DNA from: a virus
Direction: 5' to 3' (one strand)
IMG/VR virus record: IMGVR_UViG_3300012979_000023
Span: 1-24,398 of that record
DNA length: 24,398 nucleotides
The translations under genes and the position numbers were made by a program. Of this stretch, positions 1,849 through 24,398 are shown one piece after another. How positions within the stretch are numbered: the stretch's first letter is position 1; every line of letters begins with the position of its first letter. The notes under the pieces are model-generated. The model saw nothing but the letters and a program-made list of their open reading frames with translations. It did not search any database and was not told the origin of the DNA.

Positions 1849-4800
1849 TTACAGAACTTCACTCGTATTGTTAGCGAGTTGTATCCAACCGCGACCAGTA
1901 TAAGCCCAGTCAGGATTGTTAGTGCTTACATAAGGAACAGTAATACGCTCGCCGTAAAGGTAAATGCCGAGTTTATATTCTTCATTTGCTATTGGCACAG
2001 AGTAGTAATTAGTATCTCTCGCAATTGCGTAGTTCTTATTTACTTCGGTGGTGTTAAGAGAAGTATAACTCTCTGGCACCCAGAAGGAACCATCAAAGTA
2101 ATAACGTCCATTATCTGTATCATAGTAATAATATGTAGTTAAGATATTAGAAGCATTACCATAAGAGTAAGTAGTGCCCTGTGCGTCTGCCGGATTAGTA
2201 TAAACATAGAAATTCATAGAATTATCTGCGTCATTAACCAAGCAGATACTCTGTTGTAGTTTAGTAAGTTTTAACTTATCAAACTCACCAGCGTAAATAG
2301 AAGAAGTTTTACTTTCGAACCATTGGTCGCAAGAGAAATACCATTCACCAACTACTCTATTGTCTGCGTCAGCAGTATATTTAGAAATAGGAATTATTAA
2401 GCCCGGCACTAATTGACGATTTTCAGGAGCATAAAGGTCAGGATACTGATAAGTTTGAACTTCACTATTGGTTTGAACAATATAATCTGCTTCGGTAGAA
2501 ACAAAGTCCCATCCATTGAAGTAATTATAAGGTTCGTCAATACTCTTATTGCGTAGAGCCACAATGCTATCAGGCACTGCCAAGAATTCACCCGTAATTA
2601 GATTATACCAGCCATTATCGGGTATTCGTAAATCTTCACCATTAAATCTATACCAAGTGCCTTTTGGAACGGGAACCCAATAGTCTCTAATTAAAAGATT
2701 TTCATAGACGCTAACATTATAACCTAATGTAGTAGAACCGCCATTCGTAAAATCTATATATTTAATATTGGTATATCTCATTTTATAAGCAGACGTAGTA
2801 TCTGCGATATCAGTTAAACTATCGTCGAACGGTTTAAACGCATACTTACCATATAGATTTGTATTATCTTTTATGATTTCAAATTTACTTGTGTCTGGAT
2901 TCCAGAAGAAATACTCATATGGTTTTTGTGTATATACATCTTGTGTGCCAACAACCACGTTAGTAGTATTTCGGCAATTAGATATATTGGCTTTTAAGCA
3001 TAAACCGGGGGTTATTTTTTCTGGAATTATTGGTGCCTTATATTTTATCGTAGTGCCTGGAAATGGTTCCATATCATTTTTAGTATTACGACCTCGTGTG
3101 GTTCCAATATTCACACTGGGCATATAATCATCTATTCGTAATGAAGTGCCCGCTGGAAGTCTTTTATTGGTTTCACCTGGTTGTGAAGCACTATAATAAT
3201 AACTATCAAATGTAGAAACATAAGGATAATCATCATAAGGAATATTGACAATTTCTACCGCATAATCAATATCATAAATATTATCAGTTGGAGGATAATC
3301 CGGATTATTTAAGTCTAATCTCAACTGAATATTGACTGGAATTTTTGTCCTCTCATTAGCAGGACCAATCTTGGGATGTTTAATCTTGTAAGTGTTTGGA
3401 TAGAAAGGAGCATATAGAACATATTGAGAACCAGTTCTAATTAACTCTTCAAATGAGAACACAATATCGCCAGAAGCGTCCCAAGAACGAGGGTTCCACA
3501 TATAAATGCCGTCAGGATAGCCCGCAGGTCTATACAAATTCTTATCAAAACCGAAATAATCCCAGGTTAAAGCGAGTGGAGTATCACGATAAAGTTGTGG
3601 ATTAATAGGCTGATTATTTTCATCTACACGCCAAGAGGTTTCAATGAAAATATCCCAGTCGGGGTTCCAATCACTCATAGAACAAGAGAAACCGGCACGA
3701 CCTAATTCATTAGCCTCGTTCTTATTATCCTGATAATAAATACAAGTATAATTATATACTGTTTCAGGATATACGAAATCTAATTCGTGAAGTGCGGAGA
3801 ATGCCTCGTAAGTATATTCACCGGTGTATTCATAATTAGTGAAATCGTGGAAACGTAGGCGTTTAGCTTCTGGGTAAATACCTACATCAGCCAAAGAAGT
3901 GGCAGTGCTAAAATCTATATCATTCAAATCGATTGCGGTTAAGCCTAACGCATTATACAACTTACCTGCCTGGTTAAAGGAAATATCTTCTGCCTTAACC
4001 CAACTCTCAACCTCTGGGATATAGCACCATAAGCGGTCGATAGTAAGTTTATTAATATGGACTTCACTCTTAAACGGAATAGTGGCAGTTGCTTCATCAG
4101 GAACATCGTAGTCTGGGTTCTGTCCAGGACCGGTCATAGGCTCGGTCGCACTTAACATAATCCAACCTACTGGATATTCTTTTAAGCGACCCCAACCATT
4201 ACGCTCTTCAATGATAGTGTAAGTATCACGTTCAATTATCATCGCAAGAGTTTGATATTTACGAGCAGGTCCTCTATGGATACCAGCGTATTTATTCAAT
4301 ACTCTTACCTGATAAGGAATGAAATATTCGAACTTTTCATCTTCGTAGAGAGCATCGTGATAGTGGTTGTAATATTTAATCGCACCATTGGGGTTCAATA
4401 CTACGCCGTCTAAATCACAATTTAAGTAATTGGGGTTTTCTTCATCCACAGTAATTAAATCAGTTTCATAAGCACCACCGCGATAATATTCTACGTATAG
4501 AATATTGTCTGCTTCATCCGCAGTAAATTTATCATAAACTACTATTGGAGATGGAGCGTCAATGAATGCCTGGATATTATTACTTGCGATAATATTTTCA
4601 TCAAATACTAATCGTCCGTGTTTGAATTTGTCATCATAGTATAGGTCTAAATCAATACCAAGGTCGGCTAAACTATTGGCGTTTTTGATATCTTCAATAG
4701 AGTAGAAAATATCTTTGGAGCCTATACGATAATTATCTTGATAATATACAACAGTCTTGGTGAATGTTCTTAATTTATAATAAATATTCGCCAAACCTAA

Positions 4801-7800
4801 TTCGTATATTTCTTTTAAGGACATACTCTGGAAGGAAAGGTCCGTGTCTAAATCTATCATACCATCCAAATGAAATTCATCAGGTTTATAGTCATTAAAA
4901 CGTAGCATATCTTCCAGGGTTTCTTCTTGTGGATTGTAATAGGTAGGAACATCTACATATTGATTGGCGATAAACGCGTTATCCCAATCATAGTAGTTTT
5001 CAGTAATTTTGCCGTAAATTAGTGGGTCATACATTACTTGGAGTGGTAATACTTCTTCTGGTTTAATAGTGATAACTTTTTGAGCCAACGCAAGATTGCC
5101 TTGGTCATTGATACCACTAAAATCATTCATAGTATATGTGCCACCCTCATTGCTATTACCAAAGAAGATTTCGGTGATTAAGTCAAATAAGCCATTAGCA
5201 GGCATTACATAATCAAAAATCTTGTCGCCTTCGGCTACGGGGATTAAATCACGAACAAGACGGTCTCTATCATAAAGTTTTAAACCCCATACATAGCATC
5301 CACCAACCTGCGGATATTGTGGCATTGGGAAACTGGCGTAGTTAATATTTCTGGTTTTAGAAACTGTTTGATAAATGATATTACCCTGTGTGTCAGTTCC
5401 TACGCCTTCCAAAGTTTCTATAACAATAGAACCGTAATTTTCATCTTCGTAAGGATTAGTTCCTATCACGGCACTCTCTAAATTGTTAGGAGTTCCCATA
5501 CCAGAAATGGCAGGGAATAACATCGGGTTGAAAGGCATTATATTAACTTTTCCGGTATTTGGATTGGTAGCCTGGAATAAAGTGAAAGAACCGCGAGGCT
5601 GTTCTCTTCCTTCAAAGAAGTCATTATCAGTATTTTCGAACTGAACTTGATAAGGAGAATTCATAGTATTTTTATTATAAATTTCAGCATAATTATTATA
5701 CGCGTCTATAATAAAGGTAAAAGGATTACCAAATACTTTTCTTACGGCTGGATTAACTTCTTCTCCCATCTGTCCTGTGCGTCCTAAACAAGAAAGCCAA
5801 CCACCTAATTTAGTTTCACTCGGGAAAGGTATATCTATTTTTTGAGAAATACCATAAAAATTAAACGCATCAATTTCATTATAATTATCATCGTAGGTGC
5901 GGGCTACACCTCTACGATAGCCTCCCATTAAACCAATAGCAGATATAGGCACGTCAGCACCAGGATTAGTAGGACCGCCGGCACCGGTATAATAAGTAAA
6001 ACCATCGAAAGTCTGTGGTCCCAAAGCCGTATAAACCCAACTGCTTACAACAGGAATACGAGGACGCATAGAGAATGTGCCCTTTCCTTTTGCTCCATAA
6101 AATGGGTAATCTGTAATATCAAATGTTTCTCCAAGAGGTGTAGTAATAGTAGTTCCATAAGGACGTTGGCTATTAGGGATAGTATTTAATGGAGCGTGAT
6201 AACCCATAAAATTCAAATAGTCAAAACTCTGTGCTCCATAAGATTGTCTGGCAACTGCCTGGGTCAATCCTAATTCTTTTTGTGTGTAGCCTAAACCAAG
6301 AGCATATCCAGTGAATTCTACACGAAGTCTGCCGATTTCTTTTGGGCGATATCCTAAATCAATATAAGGAATGCGTCCCGCCACAGTGCTTAAATGGTTA
6401 AGAATACTATGAGAAGTTGAAGTATCAAATCCCCAATATAGCACTTTCTGTTCATAAGATGCGTTTTCAGGGTCATCAGGCTCAATTAAAGTCTCATAGA
6501 CAATCGCGATTTCTTCGGCATTAACTAAATCTTCAAATGAATACCAACGAGATGGGTCAGCGAGCATACCGCCACCGCAAATAACAGGCTTAAACTTATT
6601 AATTAATTCATTTGGTAATGTATCTACCATTTGAATTGGGTATTCATAAGTATCAATTGCGAACTCCCAAGAGGTAGAAGCAATTAGATTAGCCTCATCA
6701 ACTTCGTCAGTATAATAATTGATATCTACATATTGTGGTTCTGGGGCATACCAAATTGTGTATGTAGGTTTCAAATCTTCTGGCTTATCGAGTCGTTCGT
6801 CCATACGATACCACTCATAAGTTTCGCCATCCACATAATAGTTTTCTGGTTTTTTAGCATTGAAATCAATATAGAAGTCAATATACTCACCTTCACGGAA
6901 ATCAGACTGGTCAAAAGTCAAAGTTTCAGTGCCGACTACTTCATAAGTGCGGATGCCGAATACCTTCTTGATATAACGGATTACTGTGCTGTAAGTCTGT
7001 GGCTCTTCTTCCATAGGTTTATAGACAATCTCATAAGGAGAATATTCTAAAACACGAGAAAGAGAAACACGTTTGCCAGGATACACAAAATCTGTCTGAT
7101 AGCCTTCTGGCTTATGTTTATTTAAACGAACGATATCGCCAAAAGTAGGAACTTGATAGAAATCACGCTCGCTAATTGGGATAACTTCTTCGCTAATAAT
7201 AGTTCTTGTGCCGTCTAATTCTTCTCTAATATAATTGACGTTGATGAAATTGTTTTGCTCCTGATAAACAACATTGAAAGTCTTATTGTTAAGATTATCA
7301 AAATTAATTACAAAAGGAGTTTCTAATTCCTTAATAACGCCAGGGTTATAATAAGCCGGCTGGTATTTATCTACATTAAATTCTACATAGGGGTCCCATT
7401 CTTTTTCGCCAGTAAAATCATTACCGCGGAACCAAACCGTCATAGTCTGGAATAGGTTATCACCCTTATAGTAATTAACATAGCAATGTCCAATAGTGTG
7501 TTCCAAGTTAGTATCGGTGTATCTATCATCATCGATAATATTGAAACTATTTAATTTAGTGCCGTCTTCGAAGAAGGTCTGGCTTACTTTATCATATAAG
7601 CAATTGCTTGGGGCGACTTGATTACCAATCTTGTCATAGAACTGAACTGGAATAAAATCGCGGATTAGAACATCACCTTGATAAATACGGCAACTATAAA
7701 TACCAATACCCGCTAATCCATCAGCATAAGAACCGGAGTTATTATTGGCGAATAGATATAATGGATAAGGCATCTGGGCACTCTCGGTTTGTAATTTATT

Positions 7801-10383
7801 AGTATAAGTAAAAATTACGTTGGAGTAGCCTGCTTGTGCGGAAGAATAAATACCAGAGTTAGAGCCGAAGCCGATTGCGTTATCCTCTGTTAAGGTAAGC
7901 ATATTAGTATTCTTACCTGCCTTGGCTTCATAGGTATTGACTCCCGTTAAGTTGGTGCCATACTGCGTCTGGTTATTAAAACGCATAAAATAAGAGCCTT
8001 GATTGCTGGTGCTACCAAATAGGTAAGCATAACCGGCATTTACTTCGTGTAATGGCACATAATTATCTACACGCTTACATTCCATAATAACTGTCAATTT
8101 AGACATATCAGTAGTAGATACGCCAGTATTAATAAACGCGTGGTTTAAAGTCCATTCGGGATGTAAGTGCTCATAATCGCCTAAATCGTTATGTTGTAAG
8201 AATAAGAAGCGATGTGGATAGTCAATTCCATCAGGGTCTTCTGGTTCAACCTCTTTGATATATACAACATCAACAGAACTTAAATCCAGAAGGGCAGAGA
8301 AATTAACTGGACCATTGTATTGTAGAATGCCGTCGCCCGCATAGCCTGGCTTATAAGCATTTAAGTCTAATCCTAAATCAAATAGAGTAGTGCCTAATTC
8401 AAAATCAATTACTCGATAAGTTATATTAGAACTACCTATCCAGTTCATATCCGCTACTTCGTCGATATAATAGCGGACTGGGGTTTTATATTCAGTCGCT
8501 AAATATAGGACATCATAAGCAGAGCCTAAACTCTCAAAATCCATTAGAGCAGTAGAACTATACTTATCAATAATGCCGGGTTCATAATATTCGGGACGAT
8601 ATAGGTCTAAATTAATAATATCCTTTAAACGAATACCACCGACTACATCGGCTTCATTAATAGTAATAATACTTGTATTAATTGTGCTATAAGCACTACT
8701 TAATTCTTGTCTATATTTAACAATAATGTTCTTGGTTCTTAATTCTACAATCTCACTATACAAGATAATAATAGGAGATGCTTGTGTTAGTGCGGAAAGT
8801 GAAACTTCGCCGTCATAAGAAGCCAATTCATCAAATTGATATCCTTCCGGTCTATGTAAAGAAATAGGAATAATATCATTTAAAATTGGGTTATTTAAGA
8901 ACATTAAAGCATTAATTTCTATACGCTCTTCAACTGGGGTGCTATCAAAAGAACCAGTATAATATCTCACTACAATTGGGAAATTAATTTCCTTATAGTA
9001 GATTTGTAGTATGCCGGCATTCATAACACTATGATAAGTCTCATAAGTATCAGCATTATAAAGAGCACCCTCTTCATACTCACTGGTATGATACTTATCT
9101 AAATTAAGGTTCATATCACGGACTACATCAAAATCAGTTTCAAATGCGTCCATATATTTAGTAGTAATTGTGTTAGTTGCTACACGATACCAATTGGGGT
9201 AAGTGCCAACGTAGTATTCTACATAAAGAGTATTTTCGGTTCTATTATAACGCACCACATAAGATAGTCCAAGAGTATCATAAGTGATAGTATCATTCTC
9301 GCCAAAATCTACGACGAAACCTTCATTAAAATAGCCACCTTCTGGGCGGAATGCGTTTAAACGAATAATATCTTTCAGGGTCATACCTTCAATGATATCG
9401 CTTTCCCGCACACTCAATACAGCAGTGTCTATTAACTCATAGGTGCCGTCATCTTGTTCCTTTTCATAGCGAACTGTAATGTTTTTACTTTCCTCATTTT
9501 CTATCTTTTGGAAATATACGTTAATTGGGCTGGCTTGTAGCAATGCCTCAACTGTTAATTCGCCGTCATATCCAACAGATGCTTTGTAGCCTTCTGGTTT
9601 ATAGGTTTTTACTTCTACCAATTGGCTAATAGAATTAATATTCTTTAACTCCGGATAAGTGAAAGAAATAATGCGAGACAATAGTTCATTGTAATATCCT
9701 GTGCCGTCGTCCATATAATAAGCAACATTTAAATTGTAAGATATGGGAGCATAATTAATAATAAGGGCACTCAAAGATTGTAAGTTTTCATAGTTGAGTT
9801 CAATACCACCCAAATTAGTGGCAACACCCATATTATAATATTGAGGCAGATATTTATTTACATCCACGCCGATGCTTTCTAATGTATTACCTTCTTCTTC
9901 AAAAGAAGACGCTCGAATAGTAATACTTTCAGTTGCCAATAGAGTAGAATTATTCTGGTAATAAACTACCGTTAATTTAAAAGAATTCGTCATATTGGCG
10001 TTGGTAGTATAAATTTCTCGTGAGCCCTTGGCGTAATCACTTGTTAGAGTATAACTAACAACAAAATTACCATTTTTAAGACGATTAGGTTTAGATGCTC
10101 CTTGTAGGCTCACATCAAACAGCAAACTTAAATCATCAAATTGTAGGGTAGCCTTTTTAAGCATCTGGGTTAGACGACTTATTCTCATAAAGGCTTCTTC
10201 TTCATCGGCACACAATACTAAAAATTCTAATTCGATAGTCTTAAATCTATCTTGTTGTCTAATGGCAGTAGGTTGAATATCACCATCCAACCAATCTTCC
10301 ATAGTATCAACTTTATTACTATTTAAGACACGATTATAGAGTTGTATGCCGAGACTGCTTAAATCAATGCCGTTAATTAACAT
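1849..10383 (-). CDS. Giant 2,844-aa tail-tip adhesin. It has a Dit-like N-terminal domain (aa 1-~128), about 16 repeats of ~83 aa (MucBP/beta-grasp-like), three lectin/jelly-roll-like modules, and SH3b-like modules
   Basis: Single uninterrupted 8,535-nt ORF. The N-terminus 'MLINGIDLSSLGIQLYNRV...IELEFLVLCADEEEA...LQFDDLSLLFDV' is Dit/Sipho_tail-like. A motif '(Y/H/F)(K/R)P(E/G)(G/Y)Y' recurs at aa 262, 346, 511, 596, 678, 1007, 1090, 1177, 1832 and 2284. 'L(I/V)RD(F/L/Y)(I/W)PV' occurs at aa 905, 1708 and 2563. An SH3b-like segment lies at aa 2022-2080. Confidence 0.9.
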   Translation of the reverse strand: MLINGIDLSSLGIQLYNRVLNSNKVDTMEDWLDGDIQPTAIRQQDRFKTIELEFLVLCADEEEAFMRISRLTQMLKKATLQFDDLSLLFDVSLQGASKPNRLKNGNFVVSYTLTSDYAKGSREIYTTNANMTNSFKLTVVYYQNNSTLLATESITIRASSFEEEGNTLESIGVDVNKYLPQYYNMGVATNLGGIELNYENLQSLSALIINYAPISYNLNVAYYMDDGTGYYNELLSRIISFTYPELKNINSISQLVEVKTYKPEGYKASVGYDGELTVEALLQASPINVYFQKIENEESKNITVRYEKEQDDGTYELIDTAVLSVRESDIIEGMTLKDIIRLNAFRPEGGYFNEGFVVDFGENDTITYDTLGLSYVVRYNRTENTLYVEYYVGTYPNWYRVATNTITTKYMDAFETDFDVVRDMNLNLDKYHTSEYEEGALYNADTYETYHSVMNAGILQIYYKEINFPIVVRYYTGSFDSTPVEERIEINALMFLNNPILNDIIPISLHRPEGYQFDELASYDGEVSLSALTQASPIIILYSEIVELRTKNIIVKYRQELSSAYSTINTSIITINEADVVGGIRLKDIINLDLYRPEYYEPGIIDKYSSTALMDFESLGSAYDVLYLATEYKTPVRYYIDEVADMNWIGSSNITYRVIDFELGTTLFDLGLDLNAYKPGYAGDGILQYNGPVNFSALLDLSSVDVVYIKEVEPEDPDGIDYPHRFLFLQHNDLGDYEHLHPEWTLNHAFINTGVSTTDMSKLTVIMECKRVDNYVPLHEVNAGYAYLFGSTSNQGSYFMRFNNQTQYGTNLTGVNTYEAKAGKNTNMLTLTEDNAIGFGSNSGIYSSAQAGYSNVIFTYTNKLQTESAQMPYPLYLFANNNSGSYADGLAGIGIYSCRIYQGDVLIRDFIPVQFYDKIGNQVAPSNCLYDKVSQTFFEDGTKLNSFNIIDDDRYTDTNLEHTIGHCYVNYYKGDNLFQTMTVWFRGNDFTGEKEWDPYVEFNVDKYQPAYYNPGVIKELETPFVINFDNLNNKTFNVVYQEQNNFINVNYIREELDGTRTIISEEVIPISERDFYQVPTFGDIVRLNKHKPEGYQTDFVYPGKRVSLSRVLEYSPYEIVYKPMEEEPQTYSTVIRYIKKVFGIRTYEVVGTETLTFDQSDFREGEYIDFYIDFNAKKPENYYVDGETYEWYRMDERLDKPEDLKPTYTIWYAPEPQYVDINYYTDEVDEANLIASTSWEFAIDTYEYPIQMVDTLPNELINKFKPVICGGGMLADPSRWYSFEDLVNAEEIAIVYETLIEPDDPENASYEQKVLYWGFDTSTSHSILNHLSTVAGRIPYIDLGYRPKEIGRLRVEFTGYALGLGYTQKELGLTQAVARQSYGAQSFDYLNFMGYHAPLNTIPNSQRPYGTTITTPLGETFDITDYPFYGAKGKGTFSMRPRIPVVSSWVYTALGPQTFDGFTYYTGAGGPTNPGADVPISAIGLMGGYRRGVARTYDDNYNEIDAFNFYGISQKIDIPFPSETKLGGWLSCLGRTGQMGEEVNPAVRKVFGNPFTFIIDAYNNYAEIYNKNTMNSPYQVQFENTDNDFFEGREQPRGSFTLFQATNPNTGKVNIMPFNPMLFPAISGMGTPNNLESAVIGTNPYEDENYGSIVIETLEGVGTDTQGNIIYQTVSKTRNINYASFPMPQYPQVGGCYVWGLKLYDRDRLVRDLIPVAEGDKIFDYVMPANGLFDLITEIFFGNSNEGGTYTMNDFSGINDQGNLALAQKVITIKPEEVLPLQVMYDPLIYGKITENYYDWDNAFIANQYVDVPTYYNPQEETLEDMLRFNDYKPDEFHLDGMIDLDTDLSFQSMSLKEIYELGLANIYYKLRTFTKTVVYYQDNYRIGSKDIFYSIEDIKNANSLADLGIDLDLYYDDKFKHGRLVFDENIIASNNIQAFIDAPSPIVVYDKFTADEADNILYVEYYRGGAYETDLITVDEENPNYLNCDLDGVVLNPNGAIKYYNHYHDALYEDEKFEYFIPYQVRVLNKYAGIHRGPARKYQTLAMIIERDTYTIIEERNGWGRLKEYPVGWIMLSATEPMTGPGQNPDYDVPDEATATIPFKSEVHINKLTIDRLWCYIPEVESWVKAEDISFNQAGKLYNALGLTAIDLNDIDFSTATSLADVGIYPEAKRLRFHDFTNYEYTGEYTYEAFSALHELDFVYPETVYNYTCIYYQDNKNEANELGRAGFSCSMSDWNPDWDIFIETSWRVDENNQPINPQLYRDTPLALTWDYFGFDKNLYRPAGYPDGIYMWNPRSWDASGDIVFSFEELIRTGSQYVLYAPFYPNTYKIKHPKIGPANERTKIPVNIQLRLDLNNPDYPPTDNIYDIDYAVEIVNIPYDDYPYVSTFDSYYYSASQPGETNKRLPAGTSLRIDDYMPSVNIGTTRGRNTKNDMEPFPGTTIKYKAPIIPEKITPGLCLKANISNCRNTTNVVVGTQDVYTQKPYEYFFWNPDTSKFEIIKDNTNLYGKYAFKPFDDSLTDIADTTSAYKMRYTNIKYIDFTNGGSTTLGYNVSVYENLLIRDYWVPVPKGTWYRFNGEDLRIPDNGWYNLITGEFLAVPDSIVALRNKSIDEPYNYFNGWDFVSTEADYIVQTNSEVQTYQYPDLYAPENRQLVPGLIIPISKYTADADNRVVGEWYFSCDQWFESKTSSIYAGEFDKLKLTKLQQSICLVNDADNSMNFYVYTNPADAQGTTYSYGNASNILTTYYYYDTDNGRYYFDGSFWVPESYTSLNTTEVNKNYAIARDTNYYSVPIANEEYKLGIYLYGERITVPYVSTNNPDWAYTGRGWIQLANNTSEVL

Positions 10384-10386
10384 TAA

Positions 10387-10572
10387 TTAAATTCCTCCTT
10401 GTCTTTGGACTTCTAATCCAATGTTATTTAACATAGAGGCATTTTGTTCCTCTTGGCTGGGGGCAGACTGTTGAGTTTCTCTTATTACTGTGTCTATATT
10501 TCCACTACTGGAAGTATTTGTAAAGGTTTGTTCAGTCTGCTGTTGAATTAATGACATTACATTTTTTTCCAT
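10387..10572 (-). CDS. Hypothetical Q/S/T-rich 61-aa protein in the tape-measure position
   Basis: ORF with ATG 2 nt after the stop of the upstream gene, ending 1 nt before the giant ORF start. Low-complexity sequence with no recognisable family; coding status rests on tight packing only. Confidence 0.45.
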   Translation of the reverse strand: MEKNVMSLIQQQTEQTFTNTSSSGNIDTVIRETQQSAPSQEEQNASMLNNIGLEVQRQGGI

Positions 10573-10574
10573 AA

Positions 10575-11090
10575 CTATACCTCATTAATCCCTAATTTGT
10601 TAAAAATTTCTTGTCTCTCTTTTAAGGAACCGCCACTGTATCCTTTATCCTCTTTAAGATAAATAGGGTCTTTAATATTTTTCAAGGCTTGACCTACTGC
10701 TAATTTAGTTAAATTTGCTTCCATCTCTTTACGAGTTAAATACCCTTCATATGCGTCTTCAATTTCTTTTGGCGTCATCTTAAAAAAATCAGCGGGGGCT
10801 ATTCCCATTTCGCCTACGGCTTTGGTATATAACCCCCCTATATCAAAAAAGGATGTGAGGGATTGAGGAATGGCTGACATAATACCGGGCATTAAATTAC
10901 CCTCATCAACTGCCGTTTTGACAAGAGCAATTTCTTCATTTGTAATGTCAGGGTGCTGGCTGATTAACCCACAATACAAAATGAATTCGGTATTTTGTTC
11001 CTCACATAGATTTAAATTTTGAGCCAATAGACTTAAACCTTTCAGCCCAAATTTGACCTCAAAATATTTTTGAGGAGTTCTAATAATCAT
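10575..11090 (-). CDS. Tail assembly chaperone-like protein (171 aa); possibly a chaperone fused to a minimal tape-measure-like helical tail
   Basis: Lies immediately downstream of the major tail protein gene (ATGA overlap). The N-terminal 'YFEVKFGLKGLSLLAQNL...ILYCGL' resembles gpG-type chaperones; the C-terminal half is predicted helical by composition. Family not verified. Confidence 0.5.
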   Translation of the reverse strand: MIIRTPQKYFEVKFGLKGLSLLAQNLNLCEEQNTEFILYCGLISQHPDITNEEIALVKTAVDEGNLMPGIMSAIPQSLTSFFDIGGLYTKAVGEMGIAPADFFKMTPKEIEDAYEGYLTRKEMEANLTKLAVGQALKNIKDPIYLKEDKGYSGGSLKERQEIFNKLGINEV

Positions 11091-11476
11091 TTCCGTTCTA
11101 ACGGACCTGTGCCTAAAATGGAAATATTATATTTGAATTGTTTATCAAATACCGCAGTTAAAGGGAAATTTGTAATTAAACCTGTCCCCTTAAAATGAAT
11201 ATCATTTATAATAATTTCCACTTCAATTCCAGCGTTAGACATAAAAGCCTCTTCCAAAAGAGAGAGAGAATTAGAATTGGCTAAATAAATACCATTACAC
11301 TGGATATTCCACATTTTTAGACCGTCCATATTTTCAGCCCATTCCGCTTTGATTTTATTAGTAATTTCAATTGGGGTCATAGACTGATTGAGGGTCGCTC
11401 CTGTTTGTCCGCCTACCGGCTCTTTATTTACATAAAGAATTACATCAATTCCCTTTTGGGCTGGATTAAATGTCAT
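11087..11476 (-). CDS. Major tail protein, TP901-1/Phage_tail_2 type (129 aa from the internal ATG)
   Basis: The track ORF extends to 11566, but AGGAGGAAGAAGATA-ATG at 11476 gives 'MTFNPAQKGIDVILYVNKEPVGGQTGATLNQSMTPIEITNK...WNIQCNGIYL...FKGTGLITNFPLTAVFDKQFKYNISILGTGPL', the typical pattern of this family. The upstream extension overlaps the preceding gene and looks non-coding. Confidence 0.8.
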   Translation of the reverse strand: MTFNPAQKGIDVILYVNKEPVGGQTGATLNQSMTPIEITNKIKAEWAENMDGLKMWNIQCNGIYLANSNSLSLLEEAFMSNAGIEVEIIINDIHFKGTGLITNFPLTAVFDKQFKYNISILGTGPLERK

Positions 11477-11867
11477 TATCTTCTTCCTCCTTTGCGGAAT
11501 AAGTAAGAAGAAAAGTATATCTAATAACACCGTGCTTGCGGATTGGACCAGTCCCATTGTCATCAATAATACGAGCAGATTGTTGATTCGCCGAAATGAT
11601 ATATGGATTAGTCTCTCTTAAATATACTATATTGCGGTTTATGTTTTCAATAATTTCTAATATTTCTTTTTCGCCTGAATAAGTAGAATATACATCCAAC
11701 ATAAAACTAACAGTTTCGGTGGTGGTATCAAATGATTGGCTAATTTGATGCCCGTCTGTGCGGAGCATCAACCAAGGAAATAATTCTTTATATTCTCCAC
11801 TGTCTGTAATATGATAGCCGAGTTTTTGAATTAATTCGTAAAATTGGCGTTTAAGTTCTAAAACCAT
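11466..11867 (-). CDS. Putative tail completion / tail terminator protein (133 aa)
   Basis: Lies directly upstream of the major tail protein gene. Size and position match SPP1 gp17-like / gpU-like proteins; sequence similarity was not confirmed by eye. Confidence 0.5.
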   Translation of the reverse strand: MVLELKRQFYELIQKLGYHITDSGEYKELFPWLMLRTDGHQISQSFDTTTETVSFMLDVYSTYSGEKEILEIIENINRNIVYLRETNPYIISANQQSARIIDDNGTGPIRKHGVIRYTFLLTYSAKEEEDNDI

Positions 11868-12091: not shown

Positions 12092-12613
12092 TTAAGTAAT
12101 TTGTGTTTCAGGTATGACTATCCCTATTTCCAGGTATTCCGCTTGCGTTTCCACGCTAACTCTCGCCGCGTTTTCAGCCCAGCGTTGAAGAAAATTTTGC
12201 GAGTTAGCCTGCCTGCCGGTATTAATCTCACTGAATATTTGGTCATACATATAATAATATTCCCACGTTAAAACAAGTTCATAGGCTCGCACCCATTCAT
12301 CATAAGCCGAGTTAATAGCGGTCTCAATTGCCTGCTCAAAATAAGGCTGTGCGTCTTGCTTCCAAGTGCCATATTCTACAAATTGAGCGTATTCACAATC
12401 AGTATATAAAATTATATCCAATCCGTCTATATAGCATTTAATTGAACTTAATAAATTACCAGTGCGGACGGGGCAATTGGAACGAATAACACTATCAAAA
12501 GTATTTTTGAATATCCAATTGCCCATAGTATAATCTGCGGGGAATTGAAAATTACGCGTAGAAGACCATAAGCCTAAATCATTTTGTAAATTAAAACTCG
12601 CGTATAAGCCCAT
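12092..12613 (-). CDS. HK97 gp10-family head-tail joining protein
   Basis: 'PVRTGNLLSSIK...DIILYTDCEYAQFVEYGTWKQDAQPYFEQA' matches the (D/R)TG-x-L-x-x-S ... YA-x-x-VE-x-G signature of HK97 gp10-like proteins. Confidence 0.75.
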   Translation of the reverse strand: MGLYASFNLQNDLGLWSSTRNFQFPADYTMGNWIFKNTFDSVIRSNCPVRTGNLLSSIKCYIDGLDIILYTDCEYAQFVEYGTWKQDAQPYFEQAIETAINSAYDEWVRAYELVLTWEYYYMYDQIFSEINTGRQANSQNFLQRWAENAARVSVETQAEYLEIGIVIPETQIT

Positions 12614-12616
12614 TAC

Positions 12617-12835
12617 TTACACCTCGCTATGTAAATCCTCCACGTGCTGGGCTAACATAGCCTCTTTCTTTTCTAACTCATAGACACGCTCAATAACATT
12701 ATTATGAAGATTTACTTTTTTTTCTAATTGTTCAAGGCGATAATTAGTTAATCGAGCAGACGCAATAACACCTAAAATAGAGCCCAAAGCAGTGCCCAAA
12801 AAACCAATTATCGCGATAATTATTGTCTCACTCAT
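12617..12835 (-). CDS. Small membrane-anchored coiled-coil protein (72 aa; one N-terminal TM helix)
   Basis: 'TIIIAIIGFLGTALGSILGVIA' is a hydrophobic helix. It is followed by a heptad-like charged region 'RLEQLEKKVNLHNNVIERVYELEKKEAMLAQHVEDL'. Confidence 0.65.
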   Translation of the reverse strand: MSETIIIAIIGFLGTALGSILGVIASARLTNYRLEQLEKKVNLHNNVIERVYELEKKEAMLAQHVEDLHSEV

Positions 12836-12846
12836 TTCTATTTACC

Positions 12847-13314
12847 TCATTTATTATAAAAAATATTAATTGATGTGGCTTTATATACATTTAATGAAAA
12901 ATTTAACGTTAAAGTCATATCTTCATAAGTAGCAGAGGTAAAATATTTACCAGAAGAGTAAGAATTACTTGTATTTTGATATACTACATTAATTCCGGTT
13001 CCATCATAATAAAGAACCAGAGGGTATCGAACCGCACTTATGTTCAAACCGGAACTATCGTTCGCACATACCATTAAAGCCATAAAAGGCGTATCAGCAG
13101 AAGGTAAATAATCTTCTAAATACCAACTAATAGTAGCACTGCCTACATCACCACGAGTAAGTTGTAGATATTCTAATTCGCCTCCGCCAGTAGTCAAATT
13201 AGAAATTGCCGTAGCCATATTTAATGGAGCAATAAGCCCAGTCTCTCCGGTTTTAGAACGAATAGCATCACCAATAGAAGTTAGAGTGCTTTCTTCAATA
13301 AATACTTTACTCAT
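12847..13314 (-). CDS. Fibre-associated protein 2 (155 aa), sharing the N-terminal 'IGDAIR-KTG' motif with the 381-aa LRR protein
   Basis: 'LTSIGDAIRSKTGETGLIAPLNMATAISNLTTGGG' aligns with 'LSAIGDAIREKTGKEDLLTLDQMPEEIKGISGGG' of the 13823-14968 product. The start codon overlaps the stop of the collagen-like gene (TAATG). Confidence 0.7.
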   Translation of the reverse strand: MSKVFIEESTLTSIGDAIRSKTGETGLIAPLNMATAISNLTTGGGELEYLQLTRGDVGSATISWYLEDYLPSADTPFMALMVCANDSSGLNISAVRYPLVLYYDGTGINVVYQNTSNSYSSGKYFTSATYEDMTLTLNFSLNVYKATSINIFYNK

Positions 13315-13808
13315 TAATAAGCACCCTCCTCTGCGACGCCAATAGCGGATAGAGAAGCATCAATCATAGCCTGAATTTCAGTTGCGGTTTTAAATTGTGA
13401 AACATCAGGAATTTGGATTTCTGCTTTTACCTCATTAACTAAATCTTGCTTTTCGGATTCCGTCCAATAATCTACGCCCTTGACGGGGGCTGGTCCGGTT
13501 AATCCCTGGGGTCCCTCTGGACCCGTTGGTCCTTGAATTCCTTCCGGTCCTCTTTCCCCTTGGGGACCCTGTGGTCCCATTTCGCCCTGCGGTCCTTGTG
13601 GTCCTATCGGTCCCGCAGGTCCAGTTAAACCGATAGGTCCTTGTTCCCCCGGCATACCTTGAAGACCCTGTATTCCTTGGTCTCCTTTGGGACCTTGCGG
13701 TCCTATTGAACCCTGTGGTCCCGCAGGACCTTCTGGACCCTGGGCACCCATAATGGTCATAATTTCCTGCCATTCATTGGAGGCATTCTTAAATTTTAAA
13801 ACACTCAT
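13314..13808 (-). CDS. Collagen-like repeat protein 2 (164 aa; 29 uninterrupted G-X-Y triplets)
   Basis: G-X-Y run '[25 protein letters not shown]...GPQGLTGPA', followed by '[18 protein letters not shown]...[10 protein letters not shown]'. The DNA shows GGN-CCN periodicity at 13490-13745. Confidence 0.9.
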
Positions 13809-13822
13809 TTAGGCATCCTCCT

Positions 13823-15688
<1,866 letters not shown>

Positions 15689-17848: not shown

Positions 17849-18679
17849 CTACTCTTCCTCTAAAATTTCTTCTGTATATTCAACAAAAGAGCAAGCACAA
17901 TTTGGGTGATAAGGCGGTAGTAGGTCGCCCATCTCCGCTTCTTCTAACGGGACTGCGTCGCCTACGTAATCTAAACAAATTCCACCGCACACTGCGTCGC
18001 CGACAATCTCTACATATTCTACGCCAATAGACAATAGAACCTTTTTAGTAGCCTTGGACCACATAGCCATAGTTTCAGTTTTAAGCAGACGCTCAAATTC
18101 ATAGAATGTGCTGTCAGTCAATTTCTTCCATTCTGCTAACATCCATTCATAGCCCTTGCCTTTGCGAATGCCCTGTTCTAATATAATAGCCAATTTATTC
18201 TGGTAGTCCAAGAGATGAGAATAAAGCCTATCACTAAATATCTTCCCATCCTGGCACCACGGCTTTAAAACCACGGTTTGTTCCACAAGGAAATCAGGTA
18301 GTATGCCGAACTCTGTGCGGTTATAGATAGAGAAGGTAGCCCGCATAGTCTCTTTATATGAACGCATCATACTCTCTTTAATAACCTGGGCTCCCATCCA
18401 ACACCAATCTACAAAACGGCGTAATTCTTTTCGCTCTATATCCTTCAACGCCATATATAGTCGTGGGTGGTTCTCTAAATCTATCTTCATATCTAAATGT
18501 AGTAGCCCATCTTTAATTAGTTTATCTAAATCTTGTTTGACGCTTATCTCGAATTCTTCCAATAGTATCTCAATCATTTCTATGAGTTTCTTTTGGTCCT
18601 CATAAGCATCAGCCAATAGAGATAGAACAAGTTCTATTGTGGGCTCAATGTATGGATTAATTCTCTTTCGGGGCTTCAT
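17849..18679 (-). CDS. Minor head (head morphogenesis) protein, SPP1 gp7 / Mu F family
   Basis: The C-terminal 'DAVCGGICLDYVGDAVPLEEAEMGDLLPPYHPNCACSF' carries the PP-x-HPNC-x-C signature of Phage_Mu_F proteins. It lies downstream of the portal. Confidence 0.85.
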   Translation of the reverse strand: MKPRKRINPYIEPTIELVLSLLADAYEDQKKLIEMIEILLEEFEISVKQDLDKLIKDGLLHLDMKIDLENHPRLYMALKDIERKELRRFVDWCWMGAQVIKESMMRSYKETMRATFSIYNRTEFGILPDFLVEQTVVLKPWCQDGKIFSDRLYSHLLDYQNKLAIILEQGIRKGKGYEWMLAEWKKLTDSTFYEFERLLKTETMAMWSKATKKVLLSIGVEYVEIVGDAVCGGICLDYVGDAVPLEEAEMGDLLPPYHPNCACSFVEYTEEILEEE

Positions 18680-23863: not shown

Positions 23864-24398
23864 ATTTGTGCCTCTTTTGGGTCAGGCTCTTCCGCAAGCG
23901 TGAAATAACCAATTTTAAATGGACTTCGTGCTCGGTGAATATTAGATGAAATCTGGGCTTTGGATAAACCTGTAATTTCGTGTGCCTCATTAATACTACT
24001 GAACTCTTGGATAATTTCCCCTGTTTCAGTATCTCTTAACACTATTGGAGTAGAAGCCCATTTAATAGTAAAATTATATCCGTAAGGACGAATGTTATTA
24101 CGATTTTCCTGTTTAGTGGCAAACCGCAAATTCTTATAATAATTATTATAATGACATCTATCAATATGGTCTATATAAATTCTACCTGCTTCTTCATCAT
24201 AGCCTTCGCAAAAATGTTTTGCGACAACACGATGAATTTTATAAAAACGCTTCTTTTTTCCGAAATTAATTGTGGCATATCCTTCTTTATCGTAATAAAG
24301 GGCACGGATACAACCTGTTTCAATATTACGAATACGACCAAAATTTGAAACTTCATAAGTTGGTTCTTCTGTAAATTGCTTCCAAATTTCTTCTTCGC
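23860..24398 (-). CDS. HNH homing endonuclease, C-terminal part (HNH_3 core plus NUMOD1/IENR1-like HTH). 24276-24398 duplicates the part already listed at 1-123
   Basis: The frame is open from the window edge: '...EGYATINFGKKKRFYKIHRVVAKHFCEGYDEEAGRIYIDHIDRCHYNNYYKNLRFATKQENRNN...IQEFSSINEAHEITGLSKAQISSNIH...'. 'HR..DHID..NN..NLR..T..EN' is the HNH_3 signature. The track's 89-aa ORF (TTG start) is only its tail. Confidence 0.85.
   Translation of the reverse strand, partial: EEEIWKQFTEEPTYEVSNFGRIRNIETGCIRALYYDKEGYATINFGKKKRFYKIHRVVAKHFCEGYDEEAGRIYIDHIDRCHYNNYYKNLRFATKQENRNNIRPYGYNFTIKWASTPIVLRDTETGEIIQEFSSINEAHEITGLSKAQISSNIHRARSPFKIGYFTLAEEPDPKEAQI
24276..24398. repeat. Terminal direct repeat, copy B (identical to 1..123)
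   Basis: See copy A; exact 123-nt identity. Confidence 0.95.

Follow-up and report, generated by a model that had tools for sequence, protein, structure and literature searches.

The virus record IMGVR_UViG_3300012979_000023 of IMG/VR, which we analysed over its full length of 24,398 nucleotides (the window), encodes a siphovirus-type tail module in which the slot of the tape-measure protein (TMP) holds a micro-protein of 61 amino acids (aa). TMPs are regarded as universal in long-tailed phages and in the tail-like machines related to them: a TMP nucleates the tail tube, determines how long it becomes and is believed to contribute to the conduit by which DNA crosses the membrane. The genes of the window, here and below, all lie on the minus strand. 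Between the gene for the major tail protein (MTP, the tube protein; 11087–11476) and the Dit-like start at position 10383 there are just two open reading frames (ORFs): one of 171 aa (10575–11090, closed by a TAG stop), which is a tail assembly chaperone, and one of 61 aa (10387–10572, closed by TAA), the micro-protein. A first-pass annotation, made by a model from the letters of the sequence, had drawn attention to this pair, and both its coordinates and the peptide that it quoted are right. Three nucleotides past the 61-aa ORF begins an ORF of 2,844 aa (10383–1849), and the tail genes follow one another as MTP, the 171-aa protein, the 61-aa protein, the N-terminal domain of Dit (Dit-N) fused to about 2,700 aa, the C-terminal domain of Dit (Dit-C) and Tal. 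The module keeps the siphovirus parts list (completion protein, terminator, tube protein, chaperone, Dit and Tal). Each part belongs to a known kind, and it is their combination that is new.

A TMP was not found elsewhere in the genome. Every ORF of appreciable size was compared with Pfam and PHROGs, the giant ORF additionally in overlapping segments, and none of the scanned ORFs of the complete genome matched a TMP family. This agrees with the earlier view that the genome has no recognizable TMP, and it leaves empty the first of two findings that the annotation had named as fatal to that view, a TMP domain somewhere else, for example inside the giant ORF. The second, a segment missing at the junction, is contradicted by the ends of the window and by the recurrence of the layout. 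Because a direct repeat of 123 nt is exactly identical at both ends (1–123 and 24276–24398, by end comparison), the genome is complete, with 24,275 bp, and is circular or terminally redundant; and because it closes on itself and the same gene order is found on independent contigs from many samples, there is no assembly gap at this point. A megablast search with the whole window against 50,697 phage records returned no match and thus no near-identical cultured phage, and neither the 171-aa nor the 61-aa protein itself has a match in Pfam, PHROGs, GenBank phages (tblastn) or PDB sequences.

The giant ORF is a tail-tip protein that opens with the N-terminal ring domain of Dit (about the first 138 aa; 9970–10383) and continues with roughly 2,700 aa of a Tyr-rich, beta-type, repeat-containing putative adhesin. 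Its residues 4–134 align with residues 5–140 of the distal tail protein of Bacillus phage PK2 (BLASTP, E = 7e-10), a Dit of 243 aa whose gene comes directly after the PK2 TMP gene. Past Dit-N, the ORF has no match in Pfam or PDB, and its one weak match is to an amidase PHROG, in the C-terminal part of that family (9.2e-5). With 8.9% Tyr, 5.0% Ala, 5.1% Pro and zero hydrophobic 19-mers, its composition is unlike that of seven canonical TMPs, which have 0.7–2.1% Tyr and 8–14% Ala and six of which carry two to five hydrophobic segments. The first-pass annotation had seen nothing like a long helical TMP in this ORF, which it called beta- and Tyr-rich, and had noted its Dit-like start, and both views hold.

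These observations bear on the idea that a real TMP exists but is hidden, whether within the giant ORF, by being supplied in trans from a helper phage or the host, or by having been lost through misassembly, an idea that we regard as highly improbable. No DNA polymerase, primase/helicase, integrase or endolysin is recognizable across the complete 24.3-kb genome, so some dependence on other elements is possible. However, a Dit ring domain stands at the start of the giant ORF, whose composition is wrong for a TMP, with zero hydrophobic segments; the genome closes on itself, with the same junction architecture on dozens of independent contigs; and when 185,579 species genomes were searched with the patterns used, neither prophage copies nor a host came up.

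The layout of the slot is shared by a whole clade. In the relatives, on independent contigs from many samples, the MTP gene is followed by ORFs of 163–194 aa and of 50–92 aa, by a giant gene encoding 2,864–3,125 aa, by a 117–119-aa SPP1_Dit protein and by a Prophage_tail protein of about 340 aa. Among contigs with homologues of the 171-aa protein the longest examples measure 23–26.6 kb, and of the complete relatives most have 22–30 kb. Even where the chaperone is only about 25% identical to that of the window, it is still followed by an ORF of 51–69 aa and then by a giant gene starting with MLINGxD; a full TMP was found only beside the most remote member of the chaperone family (P0125, in L009). 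No GenBank or cultured phage of the lineage was found. MT835666 (24.4 kb, from human faeces), which shares a relative of Tal, was considered as a clade member and rejected, as it is an ordinary small siphophage with a TMP of 1,121 aa. In the literature searches made for TMP-less or micro-TMP siphoviruses, no tail module of siphovirus type with a micro-TMP was found described.

Clustered at 90% identity, the micro-protein family has at least 194 clusters, with lengths of 50–92 aa (55–56 aa in 69 of the 120 listed), and in the relatives checked the gene always lies between those of the chaperone and Dit-N. Two conserved ends, an N-terminus with the consensus M-x-Y-N-E-L-L-N-K and a C-terminal core with the consensus L-L-N-x-I-G-L-x-V-Q-R, within which the pattern N-x-[IML]-G-L-x-[VIL]-x-R is conserved, are joined by a variable linker rich in Ser, Thr and Gln. 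Codons of the core vary synonymously (TTA, CTT or CTA for Leu; AGA, CGA or CGT for Arg), and pairwise dN/dS values range from 0.20 to 0.53, which argues that selection acts on the peptide beyond the mere presence of an ORF; judged by these substitution patterns, the micro-protein is a real gene under purifying selection. An AF2 model, of low confidence (pLDDT 64.5), has a helix at residues 3–22, a disordered linker, a helix at residues 40–50 and no globular fold, and two predicted helices on a disordered linker are compatible with an extended protein resident in the tube lumen. The interval between chaperone and Dit that the 61-aa ORF occupies is the TMP slot in phages PK2, CS01, GBK2, phiSM101 and phiCTP1. 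On its position, conservation and shape, this ORF alone qualifies as a candidate for a vestigial TMP.

The micro-protein gene is also closely joined to the gene that follows it. Its stop codon abuts or overlaps the Dit start, and in most relatives it overlaps the Dit ATG (as TGATG or TAATG). The codons of its final Gly-Gly pair (GGA GGN; 10390–10398 in the window) are the Shine–Dalgarno sequence of the giant Dit gene. The overlap and the shared Shine–Dalgarno sequence suggest tight translational coupling between micro-protein and Dit, and in PK2 the TMP and Dit genes are joined by the same arrangement.

Upstream, the 171-aa protein is a tail assembly chaperone in which a G-like N-terminal half (about residues 1–75) and a T-like C-terminal half (about residues 80–171) are fused in a single frame. 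The identification is indirect, in that the Pfam matches come from members of its family and the window protein alone has none. An exhaustive profile search defined this family as 119 representative clusters (50% identity level), in which full-length members have about 150–200 aa and shorter matches are partial. Among 61 aligned members, six match Phage_TAC_6, four match Phage_TAC_12 and one, P0125, matches Phage_tail_T (1e-08). The domains of P0125 are distributed as TAC_12 in the N half (47–99) and TAC_6 (117–149) with tail_T (152–200) in the C half, and in L009 this remote member with the same two-domain build is followed immediately by a canonical TMP, which has at least 936 aa. The AF2 model of the 171-aa protein (pLDDT 78.5) shows the N half as a beta-hairpin with a helical bundle and residues 107–138 as a long helix, inside which lies the peptide MTPKEIEDAYEGYLTRKEMEANLTKLAVGQ (residues 106–135). 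Its best matches in BFVD are 'tail assembly proteins' of about 200 aa from Paenibacillus phages Saudage and Wanderer (probability 1.0, E = 1e-3 to 5e-3), and shorter 'tail assembly chaperone' proteins, also predicted structures from BFVD, fit the N half; Foldseek against the PDB gave noise only. The G-like ORF of PK2 aligns with the 171-aa protein (hhalign, E = 6e-4) and has in common with it the motif ILYCGLI...(D/E)(I/L)T.EE. In the window and in the relatives fetched, the chaperone gene lies immediately downstream of the MTP gene.

With this identification, the proposal that the 171-aa protein is itself a miniature tape measure, acting through its long C-terminal helix and predicting a tail of about 25 nm, becomes very improbable. 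The first-pass annotation had put forward the protein, or its helical C half, in this role, and the helix at 107–138, the position in the TMP region and the missing direct match of the window protein to chaperone families do speak for it. The annotation was accurate in its division of the protein, with an N half that is chaperone-like and a C half that is helical. However, the C half is a T-like chaperone domain, matched by TAC_6 and tail_T in distant members just as the N half is by TAC_12, and the fold of the whole protein is that of phage tail assembly proteins of about 200 aa. In L009 a homologous two-domain protein precedes a canonical TMP, and the full-length members of the family are confined to about 150–200 aa, without the variation expected of a ruler.

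Among the family members retrieved, the chaperone is one continuous frame and is not made as two products through a programmed −1 frameshift; the window protein is the equivalent of the GT form in lambda-type chaperones, but no frameshift is needed to make it. We rejected a frameshift joining the 171-aa and 61-aa ORFs, as the 61-aa frame is open for only three codons upstream of its ATG and the spacing of the two genes varies in relatives (a 13-nt gap, a 4-nt overlap). Readthrough of the TAG stop was also rejected as a link between them, as it adds only six residues to the 171-aa ORF. The chaperone gene has, between its G-like and T-like parts, a T6 run followed by GA (TCC TTT TTT GAT; 10843–10850, minus strand), at which a −1 slip would meet TGA immediately and yield a G-only product of about 80 aa. 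The run is probably coincidental, because its Phe-Phe pair is not conserved in the alignment of the family.

We envision that the micro-protein is a minimal TMP, or initiator, of a tail whose tube has a few rings at most, an explanation to which we assign a probability of about 50%. A long tape measure would have been reduced to, or replaced by, a micro-protein of 50–92 residues in these small uncultured phages of about 24–27 kb, and this micro-protein would be both the client of the chaperone and a functional TMP remnant. That the lineage retains a dedicated chaperone implies, on the model of lambda gpG and gpGT, a TMP-like client. According to the lambda model, the TMP is bound by the chaperone, which brings tube subunits to the initiator formed by TMP, Dit and Tal (see the review PMC9022992). 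In phage TP901-1, a deletion of 30 residues at either end of the TMP abolishes tails, whereas internal deletions shorten the tail by 0.145 nm per residue, and the extrapolated tail length is zero for a TMP of 127 aa, which corresponds to the part that lies buried in the connector and in Dit–Tal (PMC5099701). In 80alpha, TMP residues 1–37 dock on the tail completion protein within the neck, and three C-termini bind Tal (10.1101/2024.12.10.627806).

Against this background, the conserved helix predicted at each end of the micro-protein fits a TMP cut down to its two docking modules. The N-terminal helix would contact the chaperone and the end of the tail at which the completion protein and terminator lie, and the conserved C-terminal segment would seed the Dit–Tal initiator complex. 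At about 0.15 nm per residue, 50–92 residues would span some 7–14 nm, and because they fall under the 127-residue intercept at which the tail of TP901-1 reaches zero length, the tube would consist of no more than a few MTP rings under a terminator cap. It would then be six copies of the 2,844-aa Dit-fused adhesin, and not the length of the tail, that reach out to the host. A very short tail is what the first-pass annotation had foreseen in one of its two options, and, with no canonical TMP in a complete genome, a much reduced tail is the most economical prediction.

Several points weigh against this explanation. Searched with hmmsearch, 52 non-redundant PK2-type TMPs gave the micro-protein profile no more than 2.4 bits, whereas shuffled controls reached 7.2 bits, and hhalign of the micro-protein gave E = 0.054 against TMP C-termini and E = 0.13 against TMP N-termini; the family has no matches in GenBank phages or in the PDB. 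The ending (R/Q)-x-G-G-x-stop, found in 21 of the 52 TMPs and in 118 of 120 micro-proteins, was considered as a mark of homology and set aside as confounded, since GGAGG is the Dit Shine–Dalgarno sequence in both groups and the GG pair is absent in distant micro-proteins. The micro-protein also lacks a hydrophobic segment of the kind that six of the seven reference TMPs carry in two to five copies, which leaves the membrane-channel role unaccounted for. At 50–92 aa the family is far shorter than TMPs, which run to hundreds or thousands of residues, and even lies below the zero-length intercept of TP901-1; and among the more distant members of the chaperone family there are no intermediates in length between 92 aa and canonical TMPs.

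The lack of TMP homology in hmmsearch and hhalign would also suit a tail built independently of any tape measure, a possibility that we think unlikely but regard as the main rival. The micro-protein would then have another role, for instance as assembly factor, as plug of the tube or as a leader ORF that couples Dit translation, and tail length would be set otherwise, for example by the terminator capping the first MTP ring or rings or by an extension of the completion protein filling a short tube. A leader role would go well with a stop codon that overlaps or abuts the Dit start and with last codons that serve as the Dit Shine–Dalgarno sequence. In its other form, the proposal draws on the completion proteins of relatives, which have an extension of 30–60 aa with a transmembrane (TM)-like segment, and on 80alpha, in whose neck lumen a protein of this family touches the TMP (10.1101/2024.12.10.627806). 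However, the G–T chaperone, whose known clients are TMPs only, is conserved across the clade, and the micro-protein is conserved as a peptide, with synonymous substitutions and dN/dS of 0.2–0.5. Moreover, the completion protein of the window is without the hydrophobic extension, and the extension is therefore no general solution.

In five relatives (L019:6119–6769, L018:7034–7573, L015:8160–8711, L008:4758–5366 and L033:1452–2090) the completion protein has a C-terminal extension in which a helical stretch precedes a hydrophobic, TM-like segment, and a stretch rich in Gly leads on to the conserved end '...PE..IT'; in the window copy (12092–12613) the end motif is kept and the hydrophobic segment is missing. 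Because this protein family occupies the neck lumen in 80alpha, the extension might, by analogy, assume a TMP-like role in the lumen or membrane of the relatives.

Canonical tail modules of phages of Gram-positive bacteria (PK2, Clostridium phages CS01 and phi8074-B1 and Geobacillus phage GBK2, with TP901-1 and SPP1 as models) have the same gene order and homologous parts, and in PK2, CS01, GBK2, phiSM101 and phiCTP1 the genes run MTP, G, T, TMP and Dit. In the slot, however, those phages carry a TP901-family TMP of 727–1,178 aa with hydrophobic segments, whereas the window carries 61 aa; they have G together with a frameshifted or separate T, whereas the window has a single fused ORF; and in the window, unlike in those phages, Dit is split and its N-domain bears about 2,700 extra residues. 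With chaperones of the lambda gpG/gpGT type the 171-aa protein shares its site after the tube gene, its G-like and T-like build and its fold match. It differs from them in having neither a programmed −1 frameshift nor a separate short G, the whole protein standing for the GT form, and it is too diverged from the lambda-type families (TAC_12, TAC_6 and tail_T) for a direct Pfam match.

The family Phage_TAC_6, which the T-like half matches, is one that we take to be typified by chaperones of gene transfer agent (GTA) type. The TMP of RcGTA has about 200 aa and its tail about 50 nm, several-fold longer than 50–92 aa could measure. A comparison system of GTA type has a tube like that of siphoviruses, and both its tail and its TMP are short, with the C-termini of the TMP located at the baseplate centre (10.64898/2026.07.19.739414). 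As for the giant protein, its nearest parallel is the 'evolved' Dit of lactic-acid-bacteria phages, a Dit with carbohydrate-binding insertions (for the concept, PMC7291167, PMC7533335). The likeness lies in a Dit ring domain that bears added host-binding modules; the difference is that an 'evolved' Dit adds a few hundred residues, whereas the window adds about 2,700, placed after the N-domain, and has Dit-C as a separate polypeptide.

That separate Dit-C is a protein of 117 aa (1478–1831; PF22768 SPP1_Dit, 2.5e-12; phrog_33, 1.3e-19), which aligns with residues 143–242 of the PK2 Dit. In the window and in relatives, the Dit-N and Dit-C ORFs lie in different frames with a 17-nt spacer between them, and Dit is not a single polypeptide. 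The first-pass annotation had recognized the Dit-like start of the giant ORF (1849–10383) and missed this second, downstream part. The giant gene takes up 35% of the genome, and motifs of the type '(Y/F/H)(K/R)P(E/A)(G/Y)Y' recur in the Tyr-rich part of its product. Directly after the Dit-C gene comes that of Tal, the tail tip hub (447–1466; 339 aa), which consists of the N-terminal structural module only, with the Prophage_tail hub domains present (PF06605, 6e-28; PF18994, 8.6e-08).

On the other side of the slot, the MTP (129 aa; PF06199 Phage_tail_2, 1.7e-13; phrog_1407, 1.2e-21) has its closest cultured relative in the major tail protein of PK2, at 37.6% identity. Before it lie the genes of the tail terminator (11466–11867; 133 aa; phrog_176, 3.4e-13, with PF11367 at 8.2e-05, just under the Pfam cut-off) and of the tail completion or Neck1 protein, which is HK97 gp10-like (12092–12613; 173 aa; phrog_5, 2.2e-08, with PF04883 at 8.8e-4, again just under the Pfam cut-off). 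The large terminase subunit (TerL) is 48–51% identical to terminases of Clostridium and Bacillus phages. A 72-aa protein with a single TM segment (12617–12835; phrog_1863), conserved in the relative L001, adjoins the tail completion gene; no other holin-like candidate was seen. Two consecutive gene pairs (12847–15359) are placed between the genes for head completion and those for the neck, where fibre genes would be unusual, and each is made of a collagen-repeat gene (PF01391; 134 aa at 14955–15359 and 164 aa at 13314–13808) followed by a gene for a protein that starts with '...IGDAIR(E/S)KTG...' (383 aa at 13823–14974 and 155 aa at 12847–13314); these pairs may encode neck or head fibres. Outside the structural block there are just small ORFs, among them a 212-aa winged-helix-like protein, an 89-aa NUMOD1/HNH-like protein, a 57-aa HTH protein and TerS.

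Use of stop codons varies within the clade. In-frame TAG codons occur in the structural genes of L001 (34), L003 (47), L007 (14) and L008 (2), and L031 has two in-frame TGA codons; the window and L010 have none in frame. In the window, TAG stops are confined to two genes, the chaperone (10575–10577) and a MuF-like gene (17849–17851). Read with TAG as sense, the chaperone would gain six residues and reach 177 aa (10557–11090), the length of its homologues P0002 and P0004; the MuF-like gene would reach 17768, filling most of an otherwise empty gap of 100 nt. Neither the window nor eight relatives yielded tRNA genes.

Overall, this lineage keeps every other part of a siphovirus tail, including the chaperone of the TMP, and yet has 50–92 residues in the TMP slot. 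We suggest tentatively, and at somewhat less than even odds, that a widespread and diverse lineage of gut or rumen type has made the siphovirus tail stubby and podovirus-like by reduction, with an end-docking peptide, one or a few tube rings and six Dit-fused adhesins of about 2,900 residues each that would do the reaching. Such a tail raises the questions of how small a TMP can be and whether its two ends are enough, of how short an MTP tube can be, and of which protein takes over membrane penetration. For annotation, it would mean that genomes called 'siphovirus' from their genes may belong to particles that resemble podoviruses. If the explanation is true, a long ruler would be dispensable for a tail made of MTP, terminator, Dit and Tal, and these phages would offer a natural minimal system for the nucleation and termination of tube assembly by a TMP.

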